A DNA stretch of 59,080 bases, taken from the sequence record HQ641380.1. One strand, given 5' to 3'. Below, piece after piece: positions 1-55,543 of the stretch. The position numbers and the translations under genes are program-made. A model generated the notes under the pieces. It did no database searches and was not told where the DNA came from. It saw only the letters and a program-made list of their open reading frames with translations. This stretch comes from Enterobacter phage EcP1. Positions within the stretch are counted from its first letter, which is position 1, and every line of letters begins with the position of its first letter.

Positions 1-27
1 ATTCCCTTTATTTTTTTGTAGGCTCAT

Positions 28-210
28 ATGATTGATATCACTAAATTGATAGTAATAATAAACAGTTTAGATACTGAAACTAAAACCAATATATGCGCAT
101 CAGTATATTGCTTTAAAGGTATAAATTGTGATGCTTGCCCATTAACTAATTTATACGAAAAAGAGGAATTGGATGAATGGTATAGTAGAAGTAATAATAA
201 GCTTAAGTGA
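28..210 (+). CDS. small Cys-motif protein, paralog family member 1 (C..C..NCxxCPL)
   Basis: 60 aa ORF; shares the C...C...NCDACPL motif with downstream paralogs; 3' end overlaps the next member and may carry a frameshift (no YGD tail). Confidence 0.4.
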   Translation: MIDITKLIVIINSLDTETKTNICASVYCFKGINCDACPLTNLYEKEELDEWYSRSNNKLK

Positions 211-361
211 GTATTCTAAAATAGAAGTACCAAGATTATGTCATGAAACTGGTTGTGATGAAGACACCGATAAATTACTTAATTGTGTTAATTGTCCTTT
301 AAGTTCTACTAAATTAATTAAGCATAATATTAAATTATTTTATGGGGATAATAATGAATAA
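173..361 (+). CDS. small four-Cys protein, paralog family member 2
   Basis: 62 aa; CHETGC...NCVNCPL...YGDNNE; stop overlaps the next MNNI start. Confidence 0.45.
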   Translation: MNGIVEVIISLSEYSKIEVPRLCHETGCDEDTDKLLNCVNCPLSSTKLIKHNIKLFYGDNNE

Positions 362-533
362 TATACTACTAATAGCTATTAATATGAATATTTTAAAAAA
401 TAAACATAAAAGTAAGCTATGTTTAAAAATTAATCAATGCATTCCTGATGAAATAAATTGTGAATCTTGCCCTTTTTTGTCAATGTCTGCTAACACAGAA
501 TTTAAAAAATCTTATGGTGACGAAAATGATTAA
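354..533 (+). CDS. small four-Cys protein, paralog family member 3
   Basis: MNNILL start; LCLKINQC...NCESCPF...SYGDEND; the track ORF start at 342 probably arises from an ATG inside the preceding YGD codons. Confidence 0.45.
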   Translation: MNNILLIAINMNILKNKHKSKLCLKINQCIPDEINCESCPFLSMSANTEFKKSYGDEND

Positions 534-726
534 AATTATCCTATCTTTTATTCTCTTGTTCTTTTGCTTTGGTTTATTTTCATTGTTCGTATCATCTGTG
601 AACCAAGAGAGAAATAACTATCGTATTCAAGGTGAATGTATAGCTAATTATATTAGTTCTGGTGTGGAGAGATCTGATATAGAATTAGTAGGGGCTACAG
701 GATGCAGAATAACATCTATCAAATAA
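526..726 (+). CDS. small membrane or secreted protein
   Basis: Internal ATG overlapping the stop of the previous gene (ATGA); hydrophobic N-terminus IILSFILLFFCFGLFSLFVSSV. Confidence 0.35.
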   Translation: MIKIILSFILLFFCFGLFSLFVSSVNQERNNYRIQGECIANYISSGVERSDIELVGATGCRITSIK

Positions 727-905
727 TTAGATCTATGTTTGATAACAATGGGTTATGTGAATATATACTACTTAAGTATGAAGATGCAAAATTCCCTGGA
801 TTAAAGGTATCTTGTCAAAAAATACGATGTACTAATTGTCCCCTTTATCATCAATCAGTTAGTTTCATTAAAAAATATGGTGACTGCAATGACCAATCTG
901 TTTGA
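702..905 (+). CDS. small four-Cys protein, paralog family member 4
   Basis: MQNNIYQII...C...C...CTNCPL...KKYGD; the YGD region overlaps the start of the next gene as in the other members. Confidence 0.45.
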   Translation: MQNNIYQIIRSMFDNNGLCEYILLKYEDAKFPGLKVSCQKIRCTNCPLYHQSVSFIKKYGDCNDQSV

Positions 906-1719
906 AACTCAAAAGTTAATTGAAGTAATGTACAACAAAAATCAGGAATATGATTTGGTTTCAAGAGACTTCATTAATGAACCAGAATTAATGAAAGTAG
1001 TGAATCAAGAGAATGAATTAGGATTACCACCTGAATTCTTCCTTGATATTCTGGTTAAGATGGCAGTACAGACTGATGTGCTCATTGATACATTATTAGG
1101 TCAGTTAGTTAAATACGCTCCTGATGATCTGTCTCTATTGGCTCAGGGTATTGTACTTGCTGCTGAACGTGACTTAATTAACATGAGTGTACGATTTGGT
1201 AAAATAGCAATTACAGCTATATACGTAGTAGACCACAAAACCAGATCTATTATTAAACAATATCAGTATATGCTACCTATGCTGGTTCAGCCTAAAGAGG
1301 TTACAAGTAATATAGGTAGTGGTTATCTGACTAAAACAGATGATTCACTTATCCTGAAAAACAATCATCATGATGGTGATATAGCTCTGGATTCTATCAA
1401 CAAGTTTAACTCTATTCCATTGGCTCTCAATGAACGTGTCATACGCAACATCAGAGACACCAGAAAGAGTTTATCCAAGCCAAAGGAAGATGAGTCTATC
1501 GAAGACTGGAAAGAGCGTGTAGCGGACTTTGAGCGCATGGAAAAGGAATCTATGAACGTGTTTGCAGTTATGATTAATAACGGTAACAGATTCTATCTTA
1601 CCCATAAAGTTGATAAACGTGGGAGGACTTATGCACAGGGTTATCACATATCTTATCAAGGAAATACTTATCGCAAGGCTGTAATAGAATTAGCAGATAA
1701 GGAATTGATAGATGAATAA
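877..1719 (+). CDS. N4-like RNA polymerase II small subunit (gp15-like)
   Basis: 280 aa, the size of N4 RNAPII p4; lies upstream of the 402 aa T7-like catalytic subunit; the true start may be the second ATG at 889. Confidence 0.55.
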   Translation: MVTAMTNLFETQKLIEVMYNKNQEYDLVSRDFINEPELMKVVNQENELGLPPEFFLDILVKMAVQTDVLIDTLLGQLVKYAPDDLSLLAQGIVLAAERDLINMSVRFGKIAITAIYVVDHKTRSIIKQYQYMLPMLVQPKEVTSNIGSGYLTKTDDSLILKNNHHDGDIALDSINKFNSIPLALNERVIRNIRDTRKSLSKPKEDESIEDWKERVADFERMEKESMNVFAVMINNGNRFYLTHKVDKRGRTYAQGYHISYQGNTYRKAVIELADKELIDE

Positions 1720-1918
1720 TATAAATAAAGTTTTGTATTCATTAATAGATTCACCAATTCACAATTTATGCGATAATAATGGTAAAAATGAAGCTACTTT
1801 AACTTGCGAACTTATAAGACCTTTTATTAACATAAATTGTTCTCAATGCCCATTATGCAATACTTTTCCCACCACTAGAGAATCAATTGATAAAATGAGG
1901 ATTAAGTATAATGAATAA
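1712..1918 (+). CDS. small four-Cys protein, paralog family member 5
   Basis: MNNINKVLYSL...C...C...NCSQCPLC; overlaps the next MNNI start. Confidence 0.45.
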   Translation: MNNINKVLYSLIDSPIHNLCDNNGKNEATLTCELIRPFININCSQCPLCNTFPTTRESIDKMRIKYNE

Positions 1919-2099
1919 TATCACCATTATATTAAATTCCATGGAATCTGATACGGATATATGTACAGAATTTCATAAGAAATTCCCTGAATGTATAAAC
2001 TTTGATTGCTATAATTGCCCATTATCTAAATGGGGAACTTATAAAACTATAGACGATTTAAGATACGCTGAAAAATTTAACAGTATTTACGGAGATTAG
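1911..2099 (+). CDS. small four-Cys protein, paralog family member 6
   Basis: MNNITIILNSM...C...C...DCYNCPL...SIYGD. Confidence 0.45.
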   Translation: MNNITIILNSMESDTDICTEFHKKFPECINFDCYNCPLSKWGTYKTIDDLRYAEKFNSIYGD

Positions 2100-2100
2100 T

Positions 2101-2349
2101 ATGTCACTTAAACCTTATGAACAAACAGCTCGTATTATGGAATTACTTCGTGATATTCCAGATGAAGTTGAAAAACATTTCTGCTCTACATCGCCTGATT
2201 GCATGAAACAAGGTGGATGCTTCATTAAACCAGATGGAACCAGAGACAGAAGTAATTGTGCTTTATTCTCTGCTCCTGTTGAGGAGAATAATAAAGAGAT
2301 TGAAAAGCGGTATAAAACAAACTTACTTTTAGGAAGATTTAATGAATAA
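2101..2349 (+). CDS. hypothetical small Cys-containing protein
   Basis: 82 aa ORF with several Cys, ends ...RFNE; overlaps the next MNNI start; possibly a divergent relative of the array. Confidence 0.4.
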   Translation: MSLKPYEQTARIMELLRDIPDEVEKHFCSTSPDCMKQGGCFIKPDGTRDRSNCALFSAPVEENNKEIEKRYKTNLLLGRFNE

Positions 2350-2560
2350 TATTATAGATATTTTCTATGCTATATCAGAAAATCGCAGCGGAAGTCATAA
2401 CTATAAAGCTGCTATGTGCAATAAGGTATTAGCTTTAAGCTCAAAATTAGTTGATGAAACTAAGTGTGGTGTAAGCATCCATTGTTCAAACTGTGTATTC
2501 AATAATTCCAAAACAGATAATATTCCTAAGTTGCGTAAGCAGCTTAAGAAAATAGACTAA
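2342..2560 (+). CDS. small Cys-motif protein, paralog family member 7 (divergent)
   Basis: MNNIIDIFYAIS...C...C...HCSNCVF. Confidence 0.4.
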   Translation: MNNIIDIFYAISENRSGSHNYKAAMCNKVLALSSKLVDETKCGVSIHCSNCVFNNSKTDNIPKLRKQLKKID

Positions 2561-2587
2561 TCTTTAACTTTCAATGAGGAACCAGTA

Positions 2588-3796
2588 ATGCAAACATTTA
2601 CAGGTAAAGAGTATCTGAAAATTGATATCGCTAATAACTTTGGTTTAGATAAAAAGTTATTTCATGAGCGTATCGAATGGTTTGACAGTAACAAGTTCCG
2701 TCTCAAAGAACTGGTAAATGAAGCTGAGGAACCAGCATTATTCATGGCAGGTATGTTCGCTTATGAAGATATGATTCAGCGTAAACCTACCGGTTATACA
2801 GTAGCTATGGATGCATGCAGTTCAGGATTGCAGATTATGGCTGCTATCACAGGTTGTCGTGAAACAGCTAAGAATACAGGTCTGGTAGATCCTGATGTTC
2901 GTCCTGACGTATATACCACCGGTCATGAAGTTATGGCTACTATGATGGATATAGGTCAGTATCCGAGGCATATCCTGAAAGATGCCATCATGACCTATTT
3001 CTATGGTTCAGAAGCACGTCCTAAAGCAGCATTTGGAGAAGGTTCCAAAGAACTGGATGTATTCTTCCAAGTAATGAAGATCATCGCTCCTGCTGCATTT
3101 GTACTGCGTAATAGCCTGATAGAATTATGGCAACCAAATGTATTAAAACATTCATGGGTACTTCCTGATAACTTCCATGTTGAAATCAAAACAATGGTAG
3201 AAGTAGAGGAAGAAGTACATGTAAAACAATTAGGTATTGTATTCAAACAGAAGCGTAAAGTTAACAAAGGACAGGAGAAAGGATTACATCTGGCAGCTAA
3301 TACTATTCACAGTATTGATGCATTCGTTGTACGTGAGATGAACAGAAGATGTAATTATAACAGAGAATTAGTTCTTTCTCTTTTGGCTCTGCCTTGTACA
3401 GGACAAGGGTTAAACAGAAATGTAGACCATGCTCTGAGTGCTCTTATAAACTGCTATAAGGAGTCTAAGTTGTTATCTGTACGTTGTATCGATTATATCG
3501 ATATTCATAACTACGGTATGTTACCGGAAGAAATGAGAGAGGAATTAGAAAGTATCCTTAATGGTATGCTTAAGTATAAGCCTTTCCATTTGCTGACTGT
3601 ACATGATTGTTTCAGATGTCACCCTAATTACATGAATTGGGTACGACTGAATTATATTAAAATCTTCATGCAACTGGCGGACAGTGATATCTTGCAAGAC
3701 ATTGTTTCTCAGATTCGTGGAGTACCAACTGTAGTTAACAAAGTAACTAATGATCTGAGCAAGTACATTGCAAAGTCCAATTACATGTTAAGTTAA
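2588..3796 (+). CDS. N4-like RNA polymerase II catalytic subunit (T7-like single-subunit RNAP core, gp16-like)
   Basis: 402 aa; T7-RNAP-like motif A (VAMDACSSGLQIM), motif B (KDAIMTYFYGS) and motif C (LTVHDCF). Confidence 0.8.
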   Translation: MQTFTGKEYLKIDIANNFGLDKKLFHERIEWFDSNKFRLKELVNEAEEPALFMAGMFAYEDMIQRKPTGYTVAMDACSSGLQIMAAITGCRETAKNTGLVDPDVRPDVYTTGHEVMATMMDIGQYPRHILKDAIMTYFYGSEARPKAAFGEGSKELDVFFQVMKIIAPAAFVLRNSLIELWQPNVLKHSWVLPDNFHVEIKTMVEVEEEVHVKQLGIVFKQKRKVNKGQEKGLHLAANTIHSIDAFVVREMNRRCNYNRELVLSLLALPCTGQGLNRNVDHALSALINCYKESKLLSVRCIDYIDIHNYGMLPEEMREELESILNGMLKYKPFHLLTVHDCFRCHPNYMNWVRLNYIKIFMQLADSDILQDIVSQIRGVPTVVNKVTNDLSKYIAKSNYMLS

Positions 3797-3802
3797 CAAA
3801 CA

Positions 3803-3831
3803 AAGCCAACCTTAGGGTTGGCTTATTTTTT
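3803..3831 (+). terminator. rho-independent terminator after the RNAPII gene
   Basis: AAGCCAACC-TTAG-GGTTGGCTT hairpin followed by ATTTTTTT. Confidence 0.7.
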
Positions 3832-3870
3832 AGGACGAAGACAGACTAAATTAATCTGAGGAATATAAAT

Positions 3871-4143
3871 ATGTGTGATTGTAGCAAAATAGTTTTAGAA
3901 AAAGTTGTTAATAAAATGAAATCAGAACTTACAAAAGGTTCTGTAGTTACTGTAAATCCTTATTGGGATAGCATGTCTCTGGTATCTATAAACGGAGTAT
4001 TTACTTCACGACTTTCTTTAAAAATAAGCGGGCGATATCGTAAAGGTAAAAAAGACGGTTCAACATCTATTACAGAAAGTAAACTAGACACCGCAGTATT
4101 ACCTTCATATTGTCCTTTCTGTGGCGTCAAGTATCCTAAATAA
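3871..4143 (+). CDS. zinc-ribbon-like small protein
   Basis: 90 aa; N-terminal CDC and C-terminal CPFCG. Confidence 0.4.
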   Translation: MCDCSKIVLEKVVNKMKSELTKGSVVTVNPYWDSMSLVSINGVFTSRLSLKISGRYRKGKKDGSTSITESKLDTAVLPSYCPFCGVKYPK

Positions 4144-4158
4144 TTTGGAGAACTAATT

Positions 4159-4353
4159 ATGATGTATATAGTTGCAGAAGCGCAATCACGATGGAGTGAT
4201 GATAAAAAATGTGTAGAGCATTTAGCACGTAAAGTAGTGCAAGTATGCAGAACTGAAAATGAAGCAGATCAGTGTGAATTTTTATGTAGTCAGGTAAATC
4301 CTGATATTAAATACATCGTTATAAACAGCCATCAGATAGGGGTATGGGTATGA
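4159..4353 (+). CDS. hypothetical protein
   Basis: 64 aa ORF in a same-strand gene string with an RBS. Confidence 0.3.
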   Translation: MMYIVAEAQSRWSDDKKCVEHLARKVVQVCRTENEADQCEFLCSQVNPDIKYIVINSHQIGVWV

Positions 4354-4613
4354 CATACAGAAAGCCTTTAGTAATTGTATTAGGTAATGGCGATAAAATG
4401 ATTTCTGATGTGGATACAGATATCGGATATTCCGGAATTTCTATAGCCACTTTAGTTAATCCAGTAGGTATTGGTGAAGAAGTAATTCACGAATCTCAAA
4501 AATTTACCGATGATTTTGATACAGAATTAATTATTTATTCCGATTCAGTTAAATCATTAGAAGTGTTAAAAGCCGCTGTTAACAGAGCCATAGAAACATT
4601 GGAGTCAAAATGA
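4344..4613 (+). CDS. hypothetical protein
   Basis: 89 aa ORF; start/stop overlaps with neighbours. Confidence 0.35.
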   Translation: MGMTYRKPLVIVLGNGDKMISDVDTDIGYSGISIATLVNPVGIGEEVIHESQKFTDDFDTELIIYSDSVKSLEVLKAAVNRAIETLESK

Positions 4614-4981
4614 ACAAATATCGTGACAAATCAGACTTTGAGATTAATAAGGCTGTGGCTGAATGTAAATATGGCATTGGATGTACAGGGAAAACTCAAG
4701 GGGGCGATGTCATAGTATTCACTGACAGTTTTACTGCTATTTTTGACCCATGCAACAACCCGGCGGACGCAATGCCAATTGTTATTGAAAACAATATCGA
4801 CCTTTTAAATGGTGATAATGTATCGCCTGATTTATTTGGTCATCATAGTGCGTATACATTGTTTAATTTTAGCCGACCAATAGCATCCGATTCATTAAAA
4901 GAAAGCAAAACTATTTATAGATTAGCTATGGAAGTATTCCTGATGATGGAGGGTGCAGAAAATGCTGGAAAACAATCCTAA
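4610..4981 (+). CDS. hypothetical protein with EINKAVA / DPCNN motifs (paralog of 8001..8297)
   Basis: Shares the EINKAVA and FDPCNNPADA motifs with ORF 8001..8297. Confidence 0.45.
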   Translation: MNKYRDKSDFEINKAVAECKYGIGCTGKTQGGDVIVFTDSFTAIFDPCNNPADAMPIVIENNIDLLNGDNVSPDLFGHHSAYTLFNFSRPIASDSLKESKTIYRLAMEVFLMMEGAENAGKQS

Positions 4982-5414
4982 AGTATTATTGCAAATGGCT
5001 GAGATTCTTAAACAAGAATCTAAGTGCGTAAAACACGCTGTGGCATGTTTAATTGTCAAAGGTAATACAATCATAGGTAATGGAGTAAATGGTACTCCTG
5101 CTGGGTACAAGAACTGCTGTGAAGTATTCAGTAAAGATACTGTACATCAGGAACCAGAGAGAACCAAACACAGAGAGTGGTCATTGATTAATGAACTTCA
5201 TGCAGAAGAAAATGCATTGATTAATGCTACTCAGAATGTACATGGTGCTGTATGGGCTATTACCAGACCACCATGTATTCATTGCCAGAAAAAGATAGCA
5301 GCAACCAATCCGAAGAAAGTCTACATCTTAAATAGTACAGGTATTAATCTGATTAAATTAGGAGGTGTTTTCTCTTTTGGTTCTGTCCCTTACGAAGTAT
5401 TTACAGGAATTTAA
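4962..5414 (+). CDS. dCMP (deoxycytidylate) deaminase
   Basis: HAEENAL (HxE) and PCIHCQKK (PCxxC) zinc-binding deaminase motifs; start chosen after the GGAGGG RBS. Confidence 0.75.
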   Translation: MLENNPKVLLQMAEILKQESKCVKHAVACLIVKGNTIIGNGVNGTPAGYKNCCEVFSKDTVHQEPERTKHREWSLINELHAEENALINATQNVHGAVWAITRPPCIHCQKKIAATNPKKVYILNSTGINLIKLGGVFSFGSVPYEVFTGI

Positions 5415-5415
5415 A

Positions 5416-5691
5416 ATGATCAAATCAATCATATTAATGCTTGCAGCCATATTATTAGTTGGATGCAGCGAGTTAAAAGAAGGCGATGCATTAAATATCT
5501 TCCACGATAATAATCGTTATGTAACTTGTTATGTTTACAAATCAGGCTATGCTGGTGGTATTTCATGCATACCAGACGATCAATTACCTGATCCCGAAAG
5601 TTGTGTACCGGGAACTAAAAACAAATCAGAAAACAGTGAATTTCCTGATTCATGTGTATCATTTAAAAATAAATATACAGATTTTTATTAA
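5416..5691 (+). CDS. putative lipoprotein
   Basis: MIKSIILMLAAILLVGC: signal peptide with an LVGC lipobox. Confidence 0.5.
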   Translation: MIKSIILMLAAILLVGCSELKEGDALNIFHDNNRYVTCYVYKSGYAGGISCIPDDQLPDPESCVPGTKNKSENSEFPDSCVSFKNKYTDFY

Positions 5692-5699
5692 GGTGAATT

Positions 5700-5879
5700 A
5701 TGGGAAAGTTACAGTTAGGATTTTCACCATTAACTAAAACTATTCAACTGGCAAGAATGAAAAATTTAGGAAATGGTGTGAAAGTCCGAGAAGGTAATAC
5801 ACCACCGAGAGATGTAACTAACGAAGCTGCACAATTGGTATGGCAATTAGTTATTGCAGAAGGTGGAACAATTCAATGA
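5700..5879 (+). CDS. hypothetical 59 aa protein (absent from the ORF track because it is under 60 aa)
   Basis: AGGTGA RBS 3 nt upstream of the ATG; fills an otherwise non-coding gap. Confidence 0.3.
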   Translation: MGKLQLGFSPLTKTIQLARMKNLGNGVKVREGNTPPRDVTNEAAQLVWQLVIAEGGTIQ

Positions 5880-5948
5880 GCAGAAAGAAAATGGTGAAAT
5901 TATGGAACTTTCTGCCAAATTAATAAAACCTTAAATACGGGGTGTACC

Positions 5949-6239
5949 ATGACTATTCATAAATGTTGGGCTTTTACTGAAAATGCTCAACAAAAATCAA
6001 AAGAAAATTCTGAAGAATATTCTAAAATTAAACATTTACGTAGTAAAGAACATATGGAATTTACTACATCCCCTCAGTATGCACATACCACTTTCCGTGG
6101 AAAACTTATTTCAGAAGAAGCTAAGAAATTAACTTCTGATGAAATTCTCTTAATCATGGATTCAGGAAATCTTTGCTTTGGTGGTGAATGCCGCAAAGGT
6201 AATGATGGCACATTCGCAGGAAGTTATAATACGGATTAA
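5949..6239 (+). CDS. hypothetical protein
   Basis: 96 aa ORF with a GGGG RBS. Confidence 0.4.
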   Translation: MTIHKCWAFTENAQQKSKENSEEYSKIKHLRSKEHMEFTTSPQYAHTTFRGKLISEEAKKLTSDEILLIMDSGNLCFGGECRKGNDGTFAGSYNTD

Positions 6240-26721: not shown

Positions 26722-29700
26722 TTATCTAATAATTCTGACTAAATCACCGCCTGCCCCCCAAAGTGGGTGAGCGGTGATACCGTTAAACATGTTACCGAAT
26801 CCTAAGTTATAGGAGAAACTTCCGGTAATAGCATTGGCATCAAAGATATTAGGTACACTATTAATACCACTTAACATCATCAGAACTTTAATAGGATTTT
26901 CACGTAAAGTACGAATCAGTATTTTCTGAATACGAATCTTATAATTAAGGAACCAAGTAGCACCAATCGCTTCCAGATATGATCGTGTGCGGCTAGGCAG
27001 AATATTGTAGTTAACAAATTCATCCTTAACTCGTGTAAGTGCCTGCTCATGAGAAAGCGGATTACGCTGAGTTGTAAGTTTCTTATACAGAGAATATTTA
27101 GCAACAAAGTCACCATACTGAATTGATTTATTCAATACAGCATACGTAGCACTATCTTTGGTTATCAGGATATTTTTACCAACATTTGAAATACCGGTTG
27201 GAATTTTAGAAGTAATACCTTCCAGTTTTTTCATCAATTGGCCTTTATAACCAAAATCATCTGTATCAAATTTCTCAGATATAGCTGGTAATAACCCTTC
27301 TGCAATTAACGGAGCCAGTGGATTACGTGCCTGCTTATCGCGTAACTCAGATAAACGTGATTTGTATTTACCTTGCTCTGACGGATTCTGACCTAACTGA
27401 ATGAGGTGGCTTAAACGAATAATTTCACGCTCATTCTTGCGGAAGTCTTCAGCAGCAACAGTAGCCAGTGAAATATCTTTAGCCATCTGAATTGGTGACA
27501 CACCAACTGTAGCCAGATGAACCATATTGGAAATAATGTTAGCAGCAGAGACTACAACCGAACGTACAACAATCCAGTCTTTAGCATTGCTCACAAATTC
27601 TTTCCATCCACGTTCACCACGAGACAGGTATACAGCAGCTTTATCACCGAGAATATTACTGGCAACATCTTTAAATACTCGCTGGAATGCGTTCAGTTCT
27701 TCAGAATTTTTATTCCATAATTCTGTTACTGAAGGCATACGATAACCTAAAGCATTATTCAGTAAATCTTTACGGATAAAAAGCTTACCAGATACAATTT
27801 GTTCCTTGATATGGCTCTTCATTTCAGGAGGCATTAACCGATAGATTTCACGAATCTGCGGGTCAGAAGATTTTCCTGAAACTTCAATGTACTGATCTGC
27901 TTTACCTTCCTTCATATCTTTTTCATACGTTGCTTTCAGCACATCAACTAACGTAGCATTGAATTTATCAGCCATTGATTCTTCCAATATACGTCCTTCC
28001 CATGCTCCCATATTCTCAGCAAAATCGTTTGAAGTTTCTAAACGAGCATCTCTGTTAGCAAAATCCATCTGATACGAATAAGAAACAACAGCACCATTTC
28101 TGTCAACCATAGGCTGCATATAGTTACCTTCAACTGGTACTGCAACATTAGAATCAAACATGCTCTGCATAGCATTGCGTTTAGCTTCTGTCATTTTTGC
28201 TGCCTGAGAACCAGTATAACTAACTGTATTAACTCCATTGATAGTCTGGCCTGCATACGGGTCAACGCCTGCTATGGTATGACGCAGAGTGCTCATAACA
28301 CCAGATACCCAACGAGGATTAGCACCTTCATTACTCTGGAAGTAATACATTGGTTCACGGTTAAAATCTGATGGGTCACGAGCAACTTGATTACCCATCA
28401 CATAACCTTTGGCAATTAAATCACTTCTCTGTGATAAAGGAGCAATAACCACTTTCTTATTAGGATTACCTAATGAAGGTGAATAACCTTTAGGCGCAGC
28501 AAATGAACCATCTACATCCAGTTTTGATACTTCTTCTTTTTTAAGCATGTTGTAATAATTCATGGTAAATGTCAGACCATTATTTTCAGGGTCTTTAGAC
28601 ATTTCCTGATTCATTACTTCCAGCAGTTTATTTTTACTTACTGAATCTGTTTTCTGAATTGCATACAGAGAAGCCAGAGTATCAATAAGAGGTGCAGCAG
28701 CAACCGGAATATTAACATTAGCAACAGATTTACCTGTACCAATCACATGAGCGATTGAACGCGCATTAGGCAACTGATATGGCATAGGTGATACACCGGT
28801 AACAATTTGTTGACCTAAACCAAGAGCAGACTTTTTGTAGAATGTAGCAATTTCAGTATCAGGCTGAACTGCATCAATCTTCGCTTCTATATCCTTAATC
28901 TCTTTTGTAAGAGCCGCATTGTCCTCTACAAGAGTTTTAAGCTTAGTAATGTCATAACCGTTAGCATAAAGATAACTCATGTCAGAATTGATTACAGAGC
29001 GTTGTATCGCCTGTTTGCTTTCTTTATCTAAAGACACATACTGACTTTCAATAATCTCAGGAACTTCTTCACGTAATACCTGACGAGCCTTCTCCTGAAC
29101 CATAGCAGTATGATCTTTCATGTCATGAATAACTTTATTAGCATCATTGGTTCCCAGCATTTCCTGAACCAATTCACCAAATGCACCTAACTTTTTATCG
29201 TAAAGGTTATTGATGAAATTAGAGACACCTTCACGTACTGCACCGGCAGCTTGTTCAGATGCAATTGATGCAGCAACAGCAGCAGTAGGAGCAACTGCAA
29301 TTTTCACATATTTGTTCAGCTTATCTGATGCAGCACCTTTTAGCATGGCATCAGCAATAGTATCTCTCACTCCTTGAATTTTATCTTCATAAGGCTGCGC
29401 TAATTCAGCAGCCTTGTCTTCGATTTTATTCAGGATAGATTGACGTGACTCTGCATCAAAATGGCTGAGGTTACGGTTAAGCTTATCCAAACGTGAACCA
29501 ATAGTACCAGATACACCAGACTTGCCAGCCAGACCTGATACCTTAGACATGACCAGACCAACGTAATATTCGATATTCTCTTTTAATCCTACCGGCTCAG
29601 ATTTTTTAGGCTGATAACCTGCAAGATTATCCAGAATATTTCTGAATTGTTCGTTGGTTGCTGCTAATGCAAGGAAGTTAGCCAGACGATTAGATTTACC

Positions 29701-32700
29701 AGACGCATCTGCTTTAACTGCACTATTACCAAATACTGCATCGTATTTAGCTTTGGCTAATCCCATTGTCATAACGTTATTGATATCCGGATTATCTAAA
29801 AACATTTCCGGAGTAACAGCACGTTTAGCAGTTTCATACAGACGATTAGCCTCAACAGTCTTAAATCCAAATTCATCCAGACCAGCTTTAAGAGAAACCT
29901 GCATCATCTTAAATACCAGCATTTCTTTTTCACTCATATTAAAACCATGAGCGATAAATGAATCTGCTGAGGTATCTACTTCAGGTGAAAGGTTATTAAG
30001 CAGTAATGTATCTTCAAAGGTTTCAATCCCTTCAATTGGCTTACCACGCTGTTTAACCAGATCATAAATACCGTTGGTAACATTCTGGAAAACATTATTA
30101 AGATGGTTCAGATGTTCAATAGAACTGTTACCATCAGATAATCGGTCATACATTGCATTGGCAGTCATGTTATTAACTGCGTCTGCATTCTGCTGATACA
30201 GTGGAGTAGCAGATTCAGATTCTTTAGACGCTTTAACAGAATCAACCAGAGATACTGTGTTACCTAACAATTTAGTAAAGTAACTATTAATACGGGTATC
30301 GGAACCAATAGCAAACAATGATTTGATTGCATCATAGATTCTGGAAATAAACTTAGTTAATTTACCTGAAGATTTATTTGAAGAAAGGGAATCCTGCATA
30401 TGCTGGTTAGTTAATCCCCATGCAACAAATTCGCTTAATGCTTCAAACTTTTCACCATTGCTTAAATGGTCTTCGATTAAATTAATTACTCGTTGCGATT
30501 CATTTGTCTTATCGACATTAGTATCAGCCATAAATTCCTGCATCAGCGATTCCAGATTAGAAATGGAATTACGTGCGTGCTTAGGCATTTTTTCAGGAGC
30601 AGTATAATAATCCTGAATAGCCTGCTGAGTACCCGCATGAATCAGTTCATGAGTAACAGTTTCGATAGATGGATTAGCAACAAAAATATTATTACCGATA
30701 GTCACAGCATTACCATCAAAAGAAAGATTACTGAATAAATCAGGATATTCTTTTCTGAGGTGATCTGAAATCTTATCGATTGAACCAAACTGAATAACAG
30801 TATCGGCAGGAATAAGAGGCATGATTTTACCTAATACATACCGATTAATTTTATTCTGCTGAGTAGGTTCTTTACTGGTTCGCAGTGAAACAATACGATT
30901 AATCGCATCTGCATTAACTGAAGTGAGGCCATTAGCATCAGTAGTACCTAATGCTTTTACCATTTCATTTAATACATTATCAGGAGCAGATACTACACGG
31001 TTAGTTGCTCTGTTTGGTTCAACAGGCAGGTTTACAGAATGCATCCATTTTTCAAGTGGTGTCATAGAGTCGGTAATAATTTCTGATGCTTTCCCAGCAA
31101 CATGATTATTAACAACACCTGAACCTGTCATTTGGTCGATAGATGATGGAATACCTGATTTAAATAAACCATCTTTTAAAGCTTTAACCCGAGCAGCTTC
31201 ATACTGTAAATCCTTCTTGAATTCTGCAATAAATGCAGGGTCAACAGGGTTGGTTAAATTTTCATTCTTCTGCACTTTCTTATATGACTTTTCAAGACGT
31301 GCTATAGCAGCATCAGACAGATTCAGATTATTGAAATCTACCTGAGTACCCTTATCAAATTTAGAGAAGAAATCTGAAAGTAAATCAAAGTTAGCCCATG
31401 AATTGATAACACCATTGTTAATGGCATGACTGCTTTCTGTCATACCGGTAATTGGTGCTTCATAGCCATCAAACACGTTTAATGCAGTATGCGGGTTTTC
31501 CATACGGGCTACAGCCTGCATAGATGCTTCCATAGACTGAACCAATAAAGGCATAGCACGTACACCCGGGTCAGTGAATGTGATAGCCTCAGTGCGGGTT
31601 ACAGCTTTCTTACCGTTAACTTTAGTCATGGATTCAACATTCTTAGAAGTGGAATTTTCTTCAAAACCCATCTCACCAAGATAAATACCCTGACTGTTTT
31701 TAGCAGTATCAGTATTGTTTGCAGTAAGCACTGAATTAAAGATAGGAGCATACTCACTCAGTTCAAAGAAAATATCTTCTACCTGTTTGCGAGATAAGTC
31801 TTCATACTTACTCAGTTCTCCTGCTTCGCGCAGTTCTTTTGTTTTTTCTTCTACTCTCTCGTTAAACTTCTGCAAGAAGATTTCATGCATAAGGTTAGAA
31901 GCATAAACCATCATATTCGCACGTTTAATAATAGTACCAAATTTATCTTTAATTGCTCTATTAACGTACTTACCTAATCCCATAGATACATTAATTCTTA
32001 CTGCACGAATTTGCTCCGGGGTAAAAGAAAATTCACTAACTTTTGTAATTTTAACTGGAGTTCCTACTTCAAAACTTTTAGTCTTAAATACAGTAAGAGG
32101 ATTAATAGCCTGAACCATATTCTGCAACTCGGACAGAATCATTTTCTTCTGATTTACAGATACTGCATTCTTATACTGAAGATTTAAATCACTCAGTTTT
32201 TCATAGAAAGTATCAATAATACCCTTAGCAATTTTATTATTAATTGCTGTAGGGGAACCGGAATACACGGTAACAGTGATTGGATTCTTAAGCAAACCAC
32301 GCTTAATATTCACATCAGTACCAGCATTCTCATTCTGAGTGAGTGTAATATCACCAACGAAATGAGATGCAGCTCTGATAATAGAAGCCTCATGCTCAAC
32401 CAGAGCAATGTCAGATTCCAACATATATTTATTTTTGGTTCCCACCATTTTAGCTACTTCAGCTTTCCATTTAGGTAACTGATTTACCTTGTCGTAGAAT
32501 GCTGTTAAAGCCTGCTGGGAAACTGTAGAAGTATCTTCATACAAATCAGTGAAACCCTTATTGGCTTCTTTGAATGAGTTGTATAACTGACCTTCTTCAC
32601 CAAAGAACATTCCGCCTTTCTTCAAAAGATTAAGCTGATTCTGGCTTAAATCATTTAACCCTAACTGGATAATGGCGTTGAACGGGCCGTTAGTAATACC

Positions 32701-35700
32701 ATCCAGTTCAAGGGTAAGATTTATAGGTACAAAAGTTTGACCAGACTGTTTAGCCAAATCGTAACGAGCCTGTGCATACAGACCATGCATTGATTTAGTT
32801 TTCTCTCCACCTAATTCAACTGCTTTCAGGATTGTCTGACGAATAGCATCATCAGCCTGACCATCATTAAGGATATACTTAATAGCATTGAGAGCAGGTT
32901 TAAAATCAGTAGCGAGCTTATCTGCTAACTGTTTTTCAGAAGTTTCTACAGATTGTTTATCAACTTTAATTCCAAGGCTTTGAGCCACTGCTAAATTAAA
33001 GAAGCGTTCATGCTCTATATTACCTACTTCCACCTGAGAAGGTGGCACAGTAACTAACTCACGATGCAGTTTAGTAGTCTGCGGGTTCCAGTCAGCACTG
33101 GATAAGTTCAGACGATAGTTAACACCTAAGTTATAAGCAAAACGTACTTTTGCTGTAGCAGGATCAATTCCCGCATTATTCATACGGTTCCACCCTGTAT
33201 GCCAACGCTCAATATCATTCGCAACAGTACGATTATATCCTTCGACAGATTTCTCATGCTCTTTATTCAATCCTTCGATAGGCTTAATACCAAGCATATT
33301 TTCTACAAATGGTTCACCCATAATATCAAACAGGAAACTATTTAATTCAGTATTCACAACATGATGCTGTTCAGAAGCTTTACGACGAGATTTAGCCAAT
33401 AATTCAGGAGCTTTCTGGAAGACTCCATTATGAATATTATTATCGGTATATCTTACTGGTTCGTTGAAAGCAGCAGTTTTCTTCTCTCTTTCAGGTACAG
33501 CCAATTCACCAAGAATATCATTGGAATCTTTCAACAGAGTGATAATGTCATTTACTGTCTGGTTATCAGCAACGTTAACAAATACACGAGTATTTTTACG
33601 ATTATCCTCATTAACTAAAGTTGAACCAAGTGATTCAAGTTCACTATTGGAAATGTTAGTAATCTTAAACATGTCCATGTTAACGAGTGTATTGTAAGCA
33701 TCTACTGCAATACCTTTGGATACTGCATCCACTACAGATTGTGGCGCATTTACATCAGGAGAGATTGCCAGAGTTTTCATAATATCTCTGGATAAATCGC
33801 TGAGAATATTATTACGGTCTGTACCAATTTCACCTAATGCTTCCCAATGTTCAGCAGTTGGTTCGGTTTTATTATCCAGACCGAGAATATCCATTACTGC
33901 ACGAGAGTCATTATATTTGACGAGAGGAGCAGATTGACCAAACCAACGCAGAGCATTGAGCGCCATAGAATCGATAACATGTTGTGCAGGTGCATATACA
34001 GTTTCTCCGTTAATTTCACGAGGTACTGAAAAGTATTGAGTAGGATTAGAAGACCAGTAAATACGTTCACCTTCTTTAGGTAAACTATCTACGTTATCAA
34101 AGAATGTTTTACTGAATTTAGTTTTAAAATCTTCGTACTCTTTCAGTACAGAAATTTCGTGTTCTGTTACTTTGAGAGGATCAATATGATTTTTAACTAA
34201 CTCACGCACATCAGTCAGAGGATTAGCTGAGTTCAATGCTTCAGATAATTTCTGACCAAAGTTTTCAGTATTAAATGCAAAGTTTTTATTCTGAGGTTTA
34301 AACCATTTTTTAACCTGATTAGTTGCCAGATATTTTTTATCGATATCAGATATTTTTGCATTAGCTTTTGTCTCAGGAACTACAGTTTCAGCAGGAATTT
34401 CCTGCATAACTTTTTCAGATACTTTGATATCTGTTTTGGTTCCCTCATTGGTAAGGGTAGCAATTTCGTTTTCTGTTTCTGCTACTGGTTCTGCTGTCTG
34501 TGTTTCTTCTTCTTTTGCAGGTACTGCTGTTTCTTCCTGTACGGCATCAGGAGCAGTTTTAATTTCTGCTTGTTCAGTTGCAGGGGCAGACTCTGTAGGC
34601 TTAACAGTAGCTTGCTTAGTCTGTTTTTCAGCATCTACGTAAATAGATTTAAGAGAAGCATAAGCATTAACTACAGCCTGAGCATCATTTTTCATAGATT
34701 CCAGTAATTTCTTACTGCGAACCGGATGTGCTGTCATAGCTGAACCATCAAGAGAACGATATGACTCACCGGTAATAGGGTTAGTAACCACTACAGGCTG
34801 ATCACCACTCTGCATGCTATTCATTACAGATTCAAAAGTATCTGCTTTAGTCTGCATATGGTCTGCGAAACGTCCGAGACGATTAACCTGCTGTAATGCT
34901 ACAGGTAAGTTACCAGAGTTAAGAGCTGAAATAGTTCTCTGCTGATATTCATTAATTCCGGTAAAACCATCTGAACCATTCAGAACATCATTGCTTACAC
35001 CTTCAGTATTCTTCTTCATCTGAGATGCAATTTTTAATTGCTGAACCTGCGCAGGAGTTAATTTAATAGCATCTGCGTGAGTCAGTAATTTATCAATAAT
35101 GCTGGCAGGTACTTTGGTAGCATCCAGATTAACCTGCTGAAGAATAGGGATAACAGATTTATATGTCTCAGGGGTGAAATCACCTGCATCCATTTTGGTA
35201 TTAACTTCCTCAGCAACTTTAGTGATAGCAGCTTCGGACAATGACATACCGCTGAAAGATTTATTGATAAAATCTACCAGAGGACTAGCCATAATTTGAG
35301 AGAATGCATCAATACCAGCCTGATACTGTGCTTTCTGTGCATCATCAGTAGCTGAATTATATGCGTCTGTGTATGCATCAACATAAGCCTGATAAGTATC
35401 TACAGCAATCTTACCGGCAATAATCATGTCACGTTTGGTTGTAGCATCATTTTCAGAAGATTTAATACCATTGATAACACGAGTAAGTACATCAGCAGGA
35501 GCATCAGTATTGATATCTAAATTCTTGAAAGTCTCTTTGGCTTTCTCAGTATGAACCAATGAATCAACAGGTACTGGCTCAGAAACTTTATTTTCTTCAG
35601 GAACAAATTGTTGTGCCTGTTTAGCAGCTTCATTTAATTCAGTAGCCTGTTTCTCTTGTCGTTTGGTTCCCGCTTCTCCGGCACGTTTATTAAGTTGATT

Positions 35701-37230
35701 GGCTACTACATTCATACCGGCAGTAACAGTATTCTGAGCACCGGAACCAATAACAGGAATAGCATGCGCACCGGATACAGTTGCACCCATACCCAAGCCT
35801 GCAATTAATCCCTGAGCACCTGATTGACCTAAACCATCAGTAAGAGATTTATTTTTATCAGCAGTCTGCACACCAACGTTAGAAGCAAACTGACCTGTAA
35901 CGCCCTGACCTAATTCTTCAGTACCTTCTTTAACGATACCACCAACTTTTGCACGGACACCTTGCAATGAACCTCTGTTCAGAGCATTGCCTTCAAAATT
36001 AGCAGCACCGGTTAATTTAGATACAAGCATACCTGAAGCACCGGCAATTAATGCGGTCTTATCCGTAGCTAATCCAATTACTCGTTGTTTAGCAATTTCA
36101 GGGGAGTTACCAGCATCAATGAAATCACGATAAGCTTCTGAATTTTTCATCAGATCTTCATGACTCATTTTAAAAATTTCATCACGAGCCTGATCAGCAT
36201 TTGAGAAGCCTTCGGTTAAACCAATATAACCTAATGCTGCTTTCTCGGATGCTTTCATTAATTCTTTCTTACCAACTTCTGTAGCCAGATACTCAGCAGC
36301 TTTTTCTTTACCTAAATTCTGAGTAATACCTTTTACAGTAGTTTTGAGTGCAATCTTACCTACCGCACCAGCAGTAAGCAGATCAGGTGCAGATTCAGCG
36401 GTATCAGTTAATGCAGCAACAGGGTTATCAGTATAGTTACCTAAAGTATCAAAAAATTGCTGTGCCTGATTAATAGCTTCAGAGAAACCAGCATTCATAC
36501 CAGAATTGATACGATCTTTACTTTCTTTCTCACGTAATTTTTTGGATTCTTCATTATCCATTTCCTGACGTTTTTGTTGGAACTGTGCAACATCAGAATA
36601 ATTTTCTTTACGGTCTTCTACCCACTGAGCTAATTTCTGAGTAGCTCCATCTTTAGTCTGGTCTAAACCACCATAACCTAATGCATCAATAACCGCATCT
36701 TCACCACCATCAATGACAGAGGCTACATCACGCAGTACTTCGTTAGCTGTACGGTCTAACATATCTACTAAGCCAAGACCCATACGACCAGTCTGACCAG
36801 CCCAAACAGTAGCAGCGTTAGCAACGTCACCAGCAGCTTCACCTAAATTATATGGGATATTATCCATACGATTGGTTTCTGCTTCCTGAAGTGCATTGAC
36901 GCGTTTTAAATCGGTACTGTCTGTACCATATACAGAATCAAACGTATTAGCAGGCATACCTGTCAGATATTCTGAGAATTGATTAGCAGGAGTAGGCTGC
37001 TCTGGCTGAACCAAATTACCCTGATTATCAGTTACAGGAATATCATTAACAATTGCAGGAGTCTCTACAGTAGGTTGCGGTACGGTCAACTGAAGTAACT
37101 CATTCTCTTTGTTATTAAAAATAGTATCCATAGATTCTCTTTTCTGAGAACCTGCATACTCAAGCATGCCCTGCTTTGTGTTCTGTACTGCCTCATTTCT
37201 TTTGAGGTAGTCTTCAAAAGGATTAGCCAT
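26722..37230 (-). CDS. virion-encapsidated giant RNA polymerase (N4 vRNAP-like)
   Basis: About 3500 aa single ORF; T7-like motif A DGITNGPFNAIIQ and motif B KNPITVTVYSGS in its centre; start set at MANPF (AGGGGA RBS) rather than the upstream ATG at 37296. Confidence 0.8.
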   Translation of the reverse strand: MANPFEDYLKRNEAVQNTKQGMLEYAGSQKRESMDTIFNNKENELLQLTVPQPTVETPAIVNDIPVTDNQGNLVQPEQPTPANQFSEYLTGMPANTFDSVYGTDSTDLKRVNALQEAETNRMDNIPYNLGEAAGDVANAATVWAGQTGRMGLGLVDMLDRTANEVLRDVASVIDGGEDAVIDALGYGGLDQTKDGATQKLAQWVEDRKENYSDVAQFQQKRQEMDNEESKKLREKESKDRINSGMNAGFSEAINQAQQFFDTLGNYTDNPVAALTDTAESAPDLLTAGAVGKIALKTTVKGITQNLGKEKAAEYLATEVGKKELMKASEKAALGYIGLTEGFSNADQARDEIFKMSHEDLMKNSEAYRDFIDAGNSPEIAKQRVIGLATDKTALIAGASGMLVSKLTGAANFEGNALNRGSLQGVRAKVGGIVKEGTEELGQGVTGQFASNVGVQTADKNKSLTDGLGQSGAQGLIAGLGMGATVSGAHAIPVIGSGAQNTVTAGMNVVANQLNKRAGEAGTKRQEKQATELNEAAKQAQQFVPEENKVSEPVPVDSLVHTEKAKETFKNLDINTDAPADVLTRVINGIKSSENDATTKRDMIIAGKIAVDTYQAYVDAYTDAYNSATDDAQKAQYQAGIDAFSQIMASPLVDFINKSFSGMSLSEAAITKVAEEVNTKMDAGDFTPETYKSVIPILQQVNLDATKVPASIIDKLLTHADAIKLTPAQVQQLKIASQMKKNTEGVSNDVLNGSDGFTGINEYQQRTISALNSGNLPVALQQVNRLGRFADHMQTKADTFESVMNSMQSGDQPVVVTNPITGESYRSLDGSAMTAHPVRSKKLLESMKNDAQAVVNAYASLKSIYVDAEKQTKQATVKPTESAPATEQAEIKTAPDAVQEETAVPAKEEETQTAEPVAETENEIATLTNEGTKTDIKVSEKVMQEIPAETVVPETKANAKISDIDKKYLATNQVKKWFKPQNKNFAFNTENFGQKLSEALNSANPLTDVRELVKNHIDPLKVTEHEISVLKEYEDFKTKFSKTFFDNVDSLPKEGERIYWSSNPTQYFSVPREINGETVYAPAQHVIDSMALNALRWFGQSAPLVKYNDSRAVMDILGLDNKTEPTAEHWEALGEIGTDRNNILSDLSRDIMKTLAISPDVNAPQSVVDAVSKGIAVDAYNTLVNMDMFKITNISNSELESLGSTLVNEDNRKNTRVFVNVADNQTVNDIITLLKDSNDILGELAVPEREKKTAAFNEPVRYTDNNIHNGVFQKAPELLAKSRRKASEQHHVVNTELNSFLFDIMGEPFVENMLGIKPIEGLNKEHEKSVEGYNRTVANDIERWHTGWNRMNNAGIDPATAKVRFAYNLGVNYRLNLSSADWNPQTTKLHRELVTVPPSQVEVGNIEHERFFNLAVAQSLGIKVDKQSVETSEKQLADKLATDFKPALNAIKYILNDGQADDAIRQTILKAVELGGEKTKSMHGLYAQARYDLAKQSGQTFVPINLTLELDGITNGPFNAIIQLGLNDLSQNQLNLLKKGGMFFGEEGQLYNSFKEANKGFTDLYEDTSTVSQQALTAFYDKVNQLPKWKAEVAKMVGTKNKYMLESDIALVEHEASIIRAASHFVGDITLTQNENAGTDVNIKRGLLKNPITVTVYSGSPTAINNKIAKGIIDTFYEKLSDLNLQYKNAVSVNQKKMILSELQNMVQAINPLTVFKTKSFEVGTPVKITKVSEFSFTPEQIRAVRINVSMGLGKYVNRAIKDKFGTIIKRANMMVYASNLMHEIFLQKFNERVEEKTKELREAGELSKYEDLSRKQVEDIFFELSEYAPIFNSVLTANNTDTAKNSQGIYLGEMGFEENSTSKNVESMTKVNGKKAVTRTEAITFTDPGVRAMPLLVQSMEASMQAVARMENPHTALNVFDGYEAPITGMTESSHAINNGVINSWANFDLLSDFFSKFDKGTQVDFNNLNLSDAAIARLEKSYKKVQKNENLTNPVDPAFIAEFKKDLQYEAARVKALKDGLFKSGIPSSIDQMTGSGVVNNHVAGKASEIITDSMTPLEKWMHSVNLPVEPNRATNRVVSAPDNVLNEMVKALGTTDANGLTSVNADAINRIVSLRTSKEPTQQNKINRYVLGKIMPLIPADTVIQFGSIDKISDHLRKEYPDLFSNLSFDGNAVTIGNNIFVANPSIETVTHELIHAGTQQAIQDYYTAPEKMPKHARNSISNLESLMQEFMADTNVDKTNESQRVINLIEDHLSNGEKFEALSEFVAWGLTNQHMQDSLSSNKSSGKLTKFISRIYDAIKSLFAIGSDTRINSYFTKLLGNTVSLVDSVKASKESESATPLYQQNADAVNNMTANAMYDRLSDGNSSIEHLNHLNNVFQNVTNGIYDLVKQRGKPIEGIETFEDTLLLNNLSPEVDTSADSFIAHGFNMSEKEMLVFKMMQVSLKAGLDEFGFKTVEANRLYETAKRAVTPEMFLDNPDINNVMTMGLAKAKYDAVFGNSAVKADASGKSNRLANFLALAATNEQFRNILDNLAGYQPKKSEPVGLKENIEYYVGLVMSKVSGLAGKSGVSGTIGSRLDKLNRNLSHFDAESRQSILNKIEDKAAELAQPYEDKIQGVRDTIADAMLKGAASDKLNKYVKIAVAPTAAVAASIASEQAAGAVREGVSNFINNLYDKKLGAFGELVQEMLGTNDANKVIHDMKDHTAMVQEKARQVLREEVPEIIESQYVSLDKESKQAIQRSVINSDMSYLYANGYDITKLKTLVEDNAALTKEIKDIEAKIDAVQPDTEIATFYKKSALGLGQQIVTGVSPMPYQLPNARSIAHVIGTGKSVANVNIPVAAAPLIDTLASLYAIQKTDSVSKNKLLEVMNQEMSKDPENNGLTFTMNYYNMLKKEEVSKLDVDGSFAAPKGYSPSLGNPNKKVVIAPLSQRSDLIAKGYVMGNQVARDPSDFNREPMYYFQSNEGANPRWVSGVMSTLRHTIAGVDPYAGQTINGVNTVSYTGSQAAKMTEAKRNAMQSMFDSNVAVPVEGNYMQPMVDRNGAVVSYSYQMDFANRDARLETSNDFAENMGAWEGRILEESMADKFNATLVDVLKATYEKDMKEGKADQYIEVSGKSSDPQIREIYRLMPPEMKSHIKEQIVSGKLFIRKDLLNNALGYRMPSVTELWNKNSEELNAFQRVFKDVASNILGDKAAVYLSRGERGWKEFVSNAKDWIVVRSVVVSAANIISNMVHLATVGVSPIQMAKDISLATVAAEDFRKNEREIIRLSHLIQLGQNPSEQGKYKSRLSELRDKQARNPLAPLIAEGLLPAISEKFDTDDFGYKGQLMKKLEGITSKIPTGISNVGKNILITKDSATYAVLNKSIQYGDFVAKYSLYKKLTTQRNPLSHEQALTRVKDEFVNYNILPSRTRSYLEAIGATWFLNYKIRIQKILIRTLRENPIKVLMMLSGINSVPNIFDANAITGSFSYNLGFGNMFNGITAHPLWGAGGDLVRIIR

Positions 37231-37321
37231 TTTATCCCCTGTTAAAAATGAAAAAAGGTTTGTTGATATCTTACATTTAAAATGAAGAACCAACAAACCT
37301 AATATATAGCTTAAAGTGTAA

Positions 37322-55468: not shown

Positions 55469-55543
55469 GGTAAGTTAGCTAATAGGTGAAGCACCTGACT
55501 GTTAATCAGTGATAGAGTGGTTCGATTCCACTACTTACCGCCA
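55469..55543 (+). tRNA. tRNA-Asn (GTT), tentative
   Basis: Acceptor GGTAAGT/ACTTACC, T-arm AGTGG-TTCGATT-CCACT, anticodon loop CTGTTAA, encoded CCA; one mismatch in the anticodon stem and a 3 bp D-stem. Confidence 0.5.

Follow-up and report, generated by a model that had tools for sequence, protein, structure and literature searches.

What are the small genes that crowd around the RNAPII genes of Enterobacter phage EcP1 (sequence record HQ641380.1), and why are its two RNAPII subunit genes split when their counterparts gp15 and gp16 lie side by side in phage N4? In the 59,080-nucleotide stretch analysed here, referred to as the window, positions 28–3796 of the plus strand hold eleven tightly packed open reading frames (ORFs): seven copies of one kind of gene, all within 28–2560, together with genes for a small membrane protein, the RNAPII small subunit (RNAPII-S), an 82-residue protein (p82) and the RNAPII large subunit (RNAPII-L). 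The seven copies, exactly that number of paralogous plus-strand ORFs and named m1 to m7, encode proteins of 59–72 amino acids. They flank RNAPII-S and separate it from RNAPII-L, as a preliminary description of the locus had stated. Judged from their sequences, m1 to m7 are a true paralogous tandem family in which the anchor residues are fixed and the sequence between them has diverged strongly. Phages are already known to have hypervariable early accessory regions; what is new here is one undescribed four-cysteine (Cys4) scaffold, present in five to ten copies within the RNAPII operon and turning over as whole cassettes that stay in register.

All seven genes are on the plus strand, and comprise m1 (28–210; 60 aa), m2 (173–361; 62 aa), m3 (354–533; 59 aa), m4 (702–905; 67 aa), m5 (1712–1918; 68 aa), m6 (1911–2099; 62 aa) and m7 (2342–2560; 72 aa). 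Their products share an N-terminal M-N-N-I hydrophobic helix or stretch, four cysteines and a polar C-terminal tail, so that the common skeleton described earlier for seven ORFs stands. The four cysteines also stand, although the spacing given for them has to be corrected to C-x4-18-C-x4-10-C-x2-C, with m1 (C-x4-C-x5-C-x2-C-P) and m7 (C-x15-C-x5-C-x2-C) as examples, and the proline directly after the last cysteine, usually part of a Pro-Leu/Phe motif, is found in six of the seven copies and is missing from m7. Copy m1 had been thought to be frame-disrupted and is in fact an intact ORF of 60 aa. Where the other junctions have a TAA stop, m1 has TGG and so extends 12 codons into m2, an overlap of 38 nt; this extended tail is kept in some form by all close relatives, although its last residues vary. 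Isoelectric points (pI) range from 4.7 to 9.2, indicating that the copies are not uniformly DNA-like or DNA-binding, and no signal peptide or transmembrane segment was found in any of the array proteins.

Support for common descent comes from alignments and from profile searches in both directions. The shared motif, whose disappearance under a proper alignment had been named beforehand as the observation that would count against the family, is kept: all four cysteines are invariant when 22 sequences of three phages (the window, Pollock and Pylas) are aligned jointly, and also in alignments of 73–81 diverse database relatives. A hidden Markov model (HMM) built from Pollock and Pylas members only finds five of the seven window copies at E<1e-3, with values of 0.012 and 0.044 for the remaining two, a span of 4e-7 to 4e-2 within which unrelated ORFs never rank higher; the reverse test, from the window to Pollock and Pylas, also succeeds. 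Run over the 59-kb window, the family HMM recovers the seven copies and no other anywhere. Against 1.84 billion representative proteins, HMMER returns only 67 matches at E<=1e-3, and nearly all of these are 58–89 aa long.

No well-characterised family among those searched accounts for these proteins. There is no significant match in Pfam, NCBIfam, PADLOC (which holds defence systems, not inhibitors) or PDB sequence profiles, and the PHROG matches are weak (E 1.6e-4 to 2e-2), to phrog_14146 and phrog_16571, both of unknown function. Full-text searches of the literature on N4-like phages gave no description of the family, which is present in deposited genomes only as 'hypothetical' proteins or unannotated ORFs. 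The earlier remark that the family could not be recognised is thus correct as regards curated families, although both the array and the split RNAPII genes are also found in cultured phages of the Humphriesvirinae. We note that three proteins from unrelated short contigs, P0048 (132 aa, locus L004), P0064 (291 aa) and P0090 (126 aa), carry two helix-plus-Cys4 modules per chain, and the module may therefore occur outside N4-like phages as a fused repeat.

We searched 50,697 phage records for related loci. A megablast of window positions 1–6000 gave no match to a near-identical phage, and EcP1 is a distant, low-GC (36.9%) member of its group whose RNAPII-L is 49% identical to those of its nearest cultured relatives. 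Pollock has eight copies and Pylas seven, which start MN-K/Q-EL-I-x-IL and have the same four cysteines. With one Pylas copy as the query, tblastn finds 17 of the 50,697 records, from phages of Klebsiella, Salmonella, Escherichia and Shigella. The family is present in all cultured Humphriesvirinae examined (taxonomy was checked for Pollock, Pylas, KpCHEMY26 and MY01), and an uncultured 70.6-kb N4-like contig (L005) has nine copies; the search of other N4-like genomes proposed in the preliminary description thus recovers the array in some of them, at 5–10 copies each. Some members have been missed in annotation, including Pollock (L001) 5923–6135 and much of the KpCHEMY26 and MY01 arrays (L027 and L028, about 2600–3420). 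The Cys4 proteins of Escherichia phage Pollock, of the Klebsiella phages Pylas, KpCHEMY26 and MY01, of the Salmonella phages SP-058 and SP-076 and of others (phrog_14146, phrog_16571) belong to the same family, as seen in reciprocal HMM hits and in the four invariant cysteines. Their arrays likewise run from just after a homologue of N4 gp2 to RNAPII-L, are interleaved with RNAPII-S, p82 and the membrane protein, and show the same cassette turnover. They differ from the window copies in their start, MNKEL in place of MNNI, and in an overlap of 4 nt where the window copies have 8, and identity between the two groups is only ~20–30%. No family member was found in the first 11 kb of N4. A scan of IMG/VR with RNAPII-S gave four distant loci only, none with the family and one with a p82-like gene. 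The presence of array and p82 across the relatives indicates that the split between the RNAPII genes is a trait of this branch of the Schitoviridae and not a peculiarity of the window. An N4-like sequence from a chicken tracheal sample, MT025940, has best matches that include SP-058, SP-076 and Pollock (PMC11861695), and this phage may be related to the low-GC lineage of the window.

The genes of the array are joined by short reused boundaries, as had been noted from the overlap of stops with starts. Four junctions consist of the 8-nt stop/start overlap ATGAATAA and one of ATGATTAA. A longer junction repeat, AATGAATAATAT (repeat family D4), in which the upstream stop overlaps the start of the next cassette, occurs on the plus strand at 353–364, 1711–1722, 1910–1921 and 2341–2352; these are its only four matches in 59 kb, and all are at the starts of array genes or cassettes. 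Adjacent genes of the operon overlap by 8 to 38 nt at most junctions, and a Shine-Dalgarno-like core lies at –9 to –14 of the start codon of every operon gene. The YGD tail that had been listed as part of the protein skeleton is present in four of the seven copies (m2, m3, m4 and m6), but is at least partly a translation signal and not a protein motif: its coding sequence, TAY-GGN-GAY, contains a GGNGA Shine-Dalgarno core that lies at –10 relative to the start codon of the gene that follows. The terminal 'NE' is likewise forced by the 8-nt overlap ATGAATAA with the M-N-N of the next gene. With the tail encoding a ribosome-binding signal and the 'NE' imposed by the overlap, part of the shared skeleton is a translation signal.

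These junctions are also where the array changes. Close relatives were found by exact-sequence look-ups of P0013, P0062, P0083 and the window p82 in public assemblies, giving eleven distinct genomes (L003 and L021 are one contig, as are L012 and L020). The eleven encode an identical p82 protein, yet they have 5 to 8 array members. The m3 cassette is present in the window, L012/L020, L024 and L026, is absent from the rest, including L003 and L008, and its indel is bounded by the junction repeats TTATGGKGAYRAWAATGA; m5 is cleanly missing from L012/L020, L019 and L025, where the gap is 199 nt, exactly one unit; and between m6 and p82 an additional copy is found in L024 and L026. Where alleles of m6 are compared, two types, A and B, can be distinguished; at this slot A and B occur together in tandem in L026, B is accompanied by a third type in L024, and the copy of L023 is truncated. 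The m4 slot is occupied by several unrelated-looking alleles, of which that in L012/L020 has its fourth cysteine changed to tyrosine and others are N-truncated. Cassette indels in the relatives start and end at junction repeats. Nucleotide identity to the window is 90–98% for the RNAPII genes, p82, m6 and m7, and falls in the variable slots to 68–82% for m2, 50–59% for m4 (L008, L012) and 69% for m5 (L008). The Klebsiella phages Pylas, KpCHEMY26 and MY01 show the same replacement and insertion of cassettes in backbones that are 87–96% identical.

Substitution rates were compared slot by slot among the relatives as pooled Nei-Gojobori estimates of nonsynonymous (dN) and synonymous (dS) divergence. 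RNAPII-L has a dN of 0.010 (dN/dS 0.04) and p82 a dN of 0 (dN/dS 0), both with dS about 0.2. For m1, m2, m5, m6 and m7, dN is 0.09–0.28, dN/dS 0.27–0.54 and dS 0.34–0.57, so that array dN is 10–30 times that of RNAPII; the value of dN/dS for m7 is 0.27. The raised dS indicates that the array alleles predate the backbone and are subject to exchange. For m2 there are ten distinct proteins in ten relatives and four to six residue states per site in the nine-residue loop between its second and third cysteines (aa 29–37), where a crude estimate from 9 codons and 6 alleles gives dN/dS of about 1.6 against 0.34 for the rest of the gene. The proposal of rapid diversification is therefore borne out by the gain, loss and replacement of whole cassettes in close relatives and by the high dN, and strong divergence between the anchor residues is evident as well. 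Positive selection across whole genes is not supported, with pooled dN/dS at 0.27–0.54; the ratio exceeds one in the m2 loop only.

The arrangement of the genes bears on when the proteins are made. In the relatives the N4 gp2 homologue is immediately upstream of the array, and in L008 a terminator-like hairpin (5813–5850; GGGAATCTC-TCCG-GAGATTCCC then TTTATTTTTTT) lies between it and copy 1, with a 9-bp stem, a T7 run, and ~10 nt from the T-run to the m1 ATG. The window starts inside the corresponding hairpin, of which it retains the 3' arm and T-run (1–17, plus strand; ATTCCCTTTATTTTTTT). A second terminator-like hairpin (3803–3824, plus strand; AAGCCAACC-TTAG-GGTTGGCTT then ATTTTTT), found at the same site in L008, closes the operon beyond RNAPII-L, and no plus-strand terminator-like site was found between the two. 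As the genes mostly overlap and have no internal terminator, the seven copies are co-transcribed, and probably co-translated, with RNAPII. In N4, RNAPII (gp15/gp16) and its cofactors are early products of the injected virion RNA polymerase (PMC4496689). The linkage to RNAPII and the early timing in N4 together suggest that the array is expressed early, in agreement with its proposed early-region placement, and being in a single operon with RNAPII it is most likely made in the first minutes of infection. We found no promoter for the operon, sigma-70-like sites being below chance expectation, and the region upstream of the array in L008 has no repeated hairpin motif like the promoters that N4's virion RNA polymerase uses. 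Transcription may come by read-through of the hairpin or start at an unrecognised promoter. The giant virion RNA polymerase typical of N4-like phages is itself encoded in the window, as a 3524-aa ORF on the minus strand (26722–37296).

The nature of the cysteine site was examined with structure predictions and family profiles. A metal site is the natural reading of four invariant cysteines in a cytoplasmic protein of about 60 aa, and the metal would most likely be structural zinc, as the default. The more specific suggestion of a zinc ribbon is not supported: the signature has two CxxC/CxxH knuckles on beta-hairpins, in a three-stranded beta fold, and the array proteins have a single CxxC, a first cysteine pair 4–18 residues apart and no fold match. 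They resemble zinc-ribbon and treble-clef mini-domains in being small and in having four cysteines including one CxxC, which suggests a metal-stabilised fold, but differ in their one knuckle, their largely helical low-confidence models, and the lack of any sequence or fold match. AlphaFold2 models of m6 and m4 have an overall predicted local distance difference test (pLDDT) score of 64 and 60, are mostly helical and show a confident-looking N-terminal helix; no fold matches were found for these models, and sequence and fold searches of the PDB were negative.

An iron-sulphur site is the main alternative for the cysteines. On this reading they would hold a [4Fe-4S] or similar cluster in small redox or Fe-S regulators, like the WhiB factors that bind a host sigma factor, and we give it little probability. 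It draws on the modal spacing C-x4-C-x2-C, often followed by proline, on a subgroup with C-x3-C-x2-C, and on automatic 'Radical SAM' names in two databases, UniRef and nr, for two 63-aa members, P0110 and P0114 (from Salmonella phage vB_SalP_TR2 and a metagenomic phage). In radical SAM proteins a CxxxCxxC cluster motif is set in a partial TIM barrel that takes up at least some 200 aa. P0110 and P0114 are far too small and do not match the profile, and we regard the name as a mis-annotation arising from a CxxxCxxC string. Neither has a Pfam hit to Radical_SAM or Fer4 even at E<=10, the window copies have none at E<=1, and the faint NCBIfam matches to the cluster-binding stretches of radical-SAM activases score ~13 bits against cut-offs of 425–450, far below threshold. 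WhiB-like proteins have the pattern C-x14-22-C-x2-C-x5-C followed by a G[VI]WGG turn. A WhiB-like Fe-S protein is rejected because the array has a different cysteine order, no tryptophan-glycine turn and no Pfam hit, and small Cys4 sites are in any case more often zinc.

What, then, could the array do? The explanation that we favour, to which we would give about even odds, is that it encodes an early-made family of metal-stabilised binders directed at the host, for takeover or counter-defence, as the preliminary description had also supposed. The proteins would be small and cytoplasmic, each combining an amphipathic helix conserved at the N-terminus with a metal site of four cysteines and with loops that vary, and their genes would be translationally coupled with each other and with both RNAPII subunit genes in a single operon. 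The junction, made up of the Shine-Dalgarno-containing tail, ATGAATAA and the MNN start, would supply a short stretch of homology at which whole genes could be inserted, deleted or replaced with the coupling unbroken, while point substitutions would concentrate in the loops between cysteines. Each copy would block or redirect a different host protein, either a takeover target or a defence component, and host diversity would keep many alleles in circulation. The spread of pI from 4.7 to 9.2 is what different targets would lead one to expect, and the presence of a gp8 homologue within the enterobacterial arrays fits a takeover neighbourhood. The data show the homology, the reality of the genes, the structure of the operon, the cassette turnover and a high dN focused in the loop, while metal binding, early timing and binding to host proteins are all steps that we infer.

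Several observations weigh against a host-directed binder family. N4 does without the family altogether. Whole-gene dN/dS is below one, and the raised dS implies that much of the divergence reflects recombinational import of old alleles and not positive selection in place, while the m2 loop estimate rests on 9 codons and 6 alleles. That m6, m7 and p82 are fairly conserved is unlike an arms race in which each member takes part. The two AlphaFold2 models have low confidence and disagree in their middle regions. Finally, with a hairpin directly 5' of copy 1 and no promoter identified, timing follows only from the linkage to RNAPII.

Three other accounts of the array as a whole have to be weighed against host-directed binding. 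The genes could encode accessory or regulatory factors of the phage RNAPII, such as chaperones for its assembly, factors for promoter specificity or inhibitors by which middle transcription is timed; they are tightly coupled with RNAPII-S and RNAPII-L, the layout is conserved over the Humphriesvirinae, L005 and the window clade, and the invariant p82, a possible remote relative, is always between the subunit genes. However, RNAPII itself barely changes (dN 0.010), and a fixed partner should not tolerate 5 to 8 copies and the replacement of whole alleles in near-identical genomes; the N4 RNAPII works with gp1 and gp2 only (PMC4496689) in a phage that has no family member. We consider such a role unlikely for the array, and it would suit p82 better. 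Alternatively, the array could be directed against other phages instead of host defence, excluding superinfection or interfering with relatives that co-infect the cell, and its alleles would diversify because these targets themselves evolve fast. The early operon, the cassette turnover and the old alleles kept in the population are all compatible with this, as are the many related phages across sample series with neighbouring accession numbers; but those exclusion proteins that are known from N4-like phages are factors of the membrane or of DNA entry, whereas the array proteins have no signal peptide or transmembrane segment, and to us this is rather a long shot.

The cassettes might also be nearly neutral passengers, which persist by virtue of their recombining junctions and the ribosome-binding sites in their tails and whose products do little. 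Tails that encode the Shine-Dalgarno sequence of the downstream gene, frequent loss and truncation, the Cys-to-Tyr variant and a dN/dS that is relaxed relative to RNAPII would all be expected of passengers. They would not be expected to keep four cysteines and an N-terminal helix invariant over very divergent phages, nor to show dN/dS clearly below one outside the loops, and every phage of the group retains 5–10 copies; this too appears quite improbable. The dN/dS comparison, proposed at the outset as a check on diversification, puts the m2 loop at about 1.6 and whole genes at 0.27–0.54.

A more elaborate version of the host-directed reading is possible, though we hold it tentatively. The array would be an exchangeable repertoire of mini-binders, with the helix and Cys4 site as scaffold and the loops setting specificity, each cassette neutralising a different host immune or housekeeping protein, and the junction being the recombination site, so that the whole would resemble an integron without a recombinase, used for counter-defence. 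If the junction doubles as a recombination site in this manner, co-infecting phages could swap, add or drop binders in register. Gene 'accordions' and tandem families are known from virus-host arms races, as in the amplification of K3L in poxviruses and of the tifA region of T4 against toxIN. The array is like these in having tandem copies of genes that would be host-directed, in a number that varies between close relatives, and in recombination between repeats. It is unlike them in that its copies are old and strongly diverged, and in that the recombining homology is only the 12–18 nt of the junction.

The other genes of the operon are more constant. The p82 gene (2101–2349, plus strand; 82 aa) encodes a protein with C-x5-C-x5-C-x12-C and the motif HFCST-x-P-x-C ... 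C ... KCAL, and matches phrog_22821 (E=2e-13), a separate family that only this ORF matches. The protein is 100% identical across the 11 relatives, although dS is about 0.2. Its place is always between the two RNAPII genes (Pollock, Pylas, L005, L015), a distant IMG/VR phage without the array included. We considered p82 as an eighth member of the array and rejected it, because the family HMM gives E of about 1.5–1.8 for the Pollock and Pylas p82 proteins, and hhalign of the p82 and array profiles gives a probability of 18% (8–18% across runs; P=0.0014). The p82-array alignment does run in the same order, with helix, first cysteine, and last cysteine followed by A/P-L, and p82 may be a remote relative of the family. 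It is moreover a candidate for a third component of RNAPII, or for a cofactor of it, in this lineage, a suggestion drawn from conservation and gene position.

RNAPII-S (N4 gp15-like; 889/877–1719, plus strand) is identified by homology to the Pollock product annotated as 'RNA polymerase 1, N4 gp15-like', and probably begins at ATG 889 rather than at the first ATG, 877, as GGTGA lies at –10 of ATG 889 and the Pollock and L005 homologues begin nearby too. RNAPII-L (N4 gp16-like; 2588–3796, plus strand) matches PF00940 (E=3e-17) and has 49% identity to its Humphriesvirinae homologues. The small membrane protein (526–726, plus strand; 66 aa) has a hydrophobic N-terminus, is not a family member, and matches phrog_19839 (E=2e-6), of unknown function. 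It also matches phrog_25167, has the C-terminal motif ECI..YISSG.ERSDIEL, and has homologues at the same place in Pollock, Pylas and L005. Just past the operon terminator, a 90-aa ORF at 3871–4143 with an N-terminal CxC and a C-terminal CPFC is a variable accessory gene, with 85% nucleotide identity to L003 as against 95–99% for its neighbours, and is missing from L012. A cluster of three tRNA genes, Asn(GTT), Pro(TGG) and Met(CAT), lies elsewhere in the window at 55469–55704; Asn (AAT) is abundant in the array proteins.

Two further observations concern the position itself. In the more distant N4-like IMG/VR contigs L013 and L014 (about 4830–5350), an HNH-endonuclease-like ORF directly follows RNAPII-S at the array's position, and the interval between the two RNAPII genes has the look of a hot-spot for insertion in general. 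The arrays of Pollock, Pylas and L005 also contain a homologue of N4 gp8 (PF25713, 'Bacteriophage N4 DNA replication inhibitor'). N4 gp8 resembles the array proteins in its length of ~70 aa and in lying in the same part of the N4 genome (2593–2808, upstream of gp15/gp16), a neighbourhood that holds host-takeover genes, but has no sequence relation to them, no Cys4 site, and is single-copy. Identity of the window copies with gp8 was rejected, since none gives a profile hit to PF25713 whereas the positive control, L005 8630–8854, does so at E=4e-28; tblastn of gp8 finds no homologue in the window.

Early, fast-evolving accessory genes are the usual home of counter-defence and takeover factors in phages, and these are mostly single, unrelated genes. 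Here one scaffold is reused 5–10 times per genome, and natural allele series with presence and absence variants are available in public data. The family is also present in phages of E. coli, Klebsiella, Salmonella and Shigella that are in culture and open to genetic work, so that the retargeting of a single small fold to many host proteins, and the way in which a phage renews such a repertoire, would be directly testable. Should the proteins turn out to be simple helpers of RNAPII, or to be inert, what is left would be a corrected annotation for one phage subfamily. A junction that both couples translation and delimits cassettes is a simple mechanism, and one that could be sought elsewhere.

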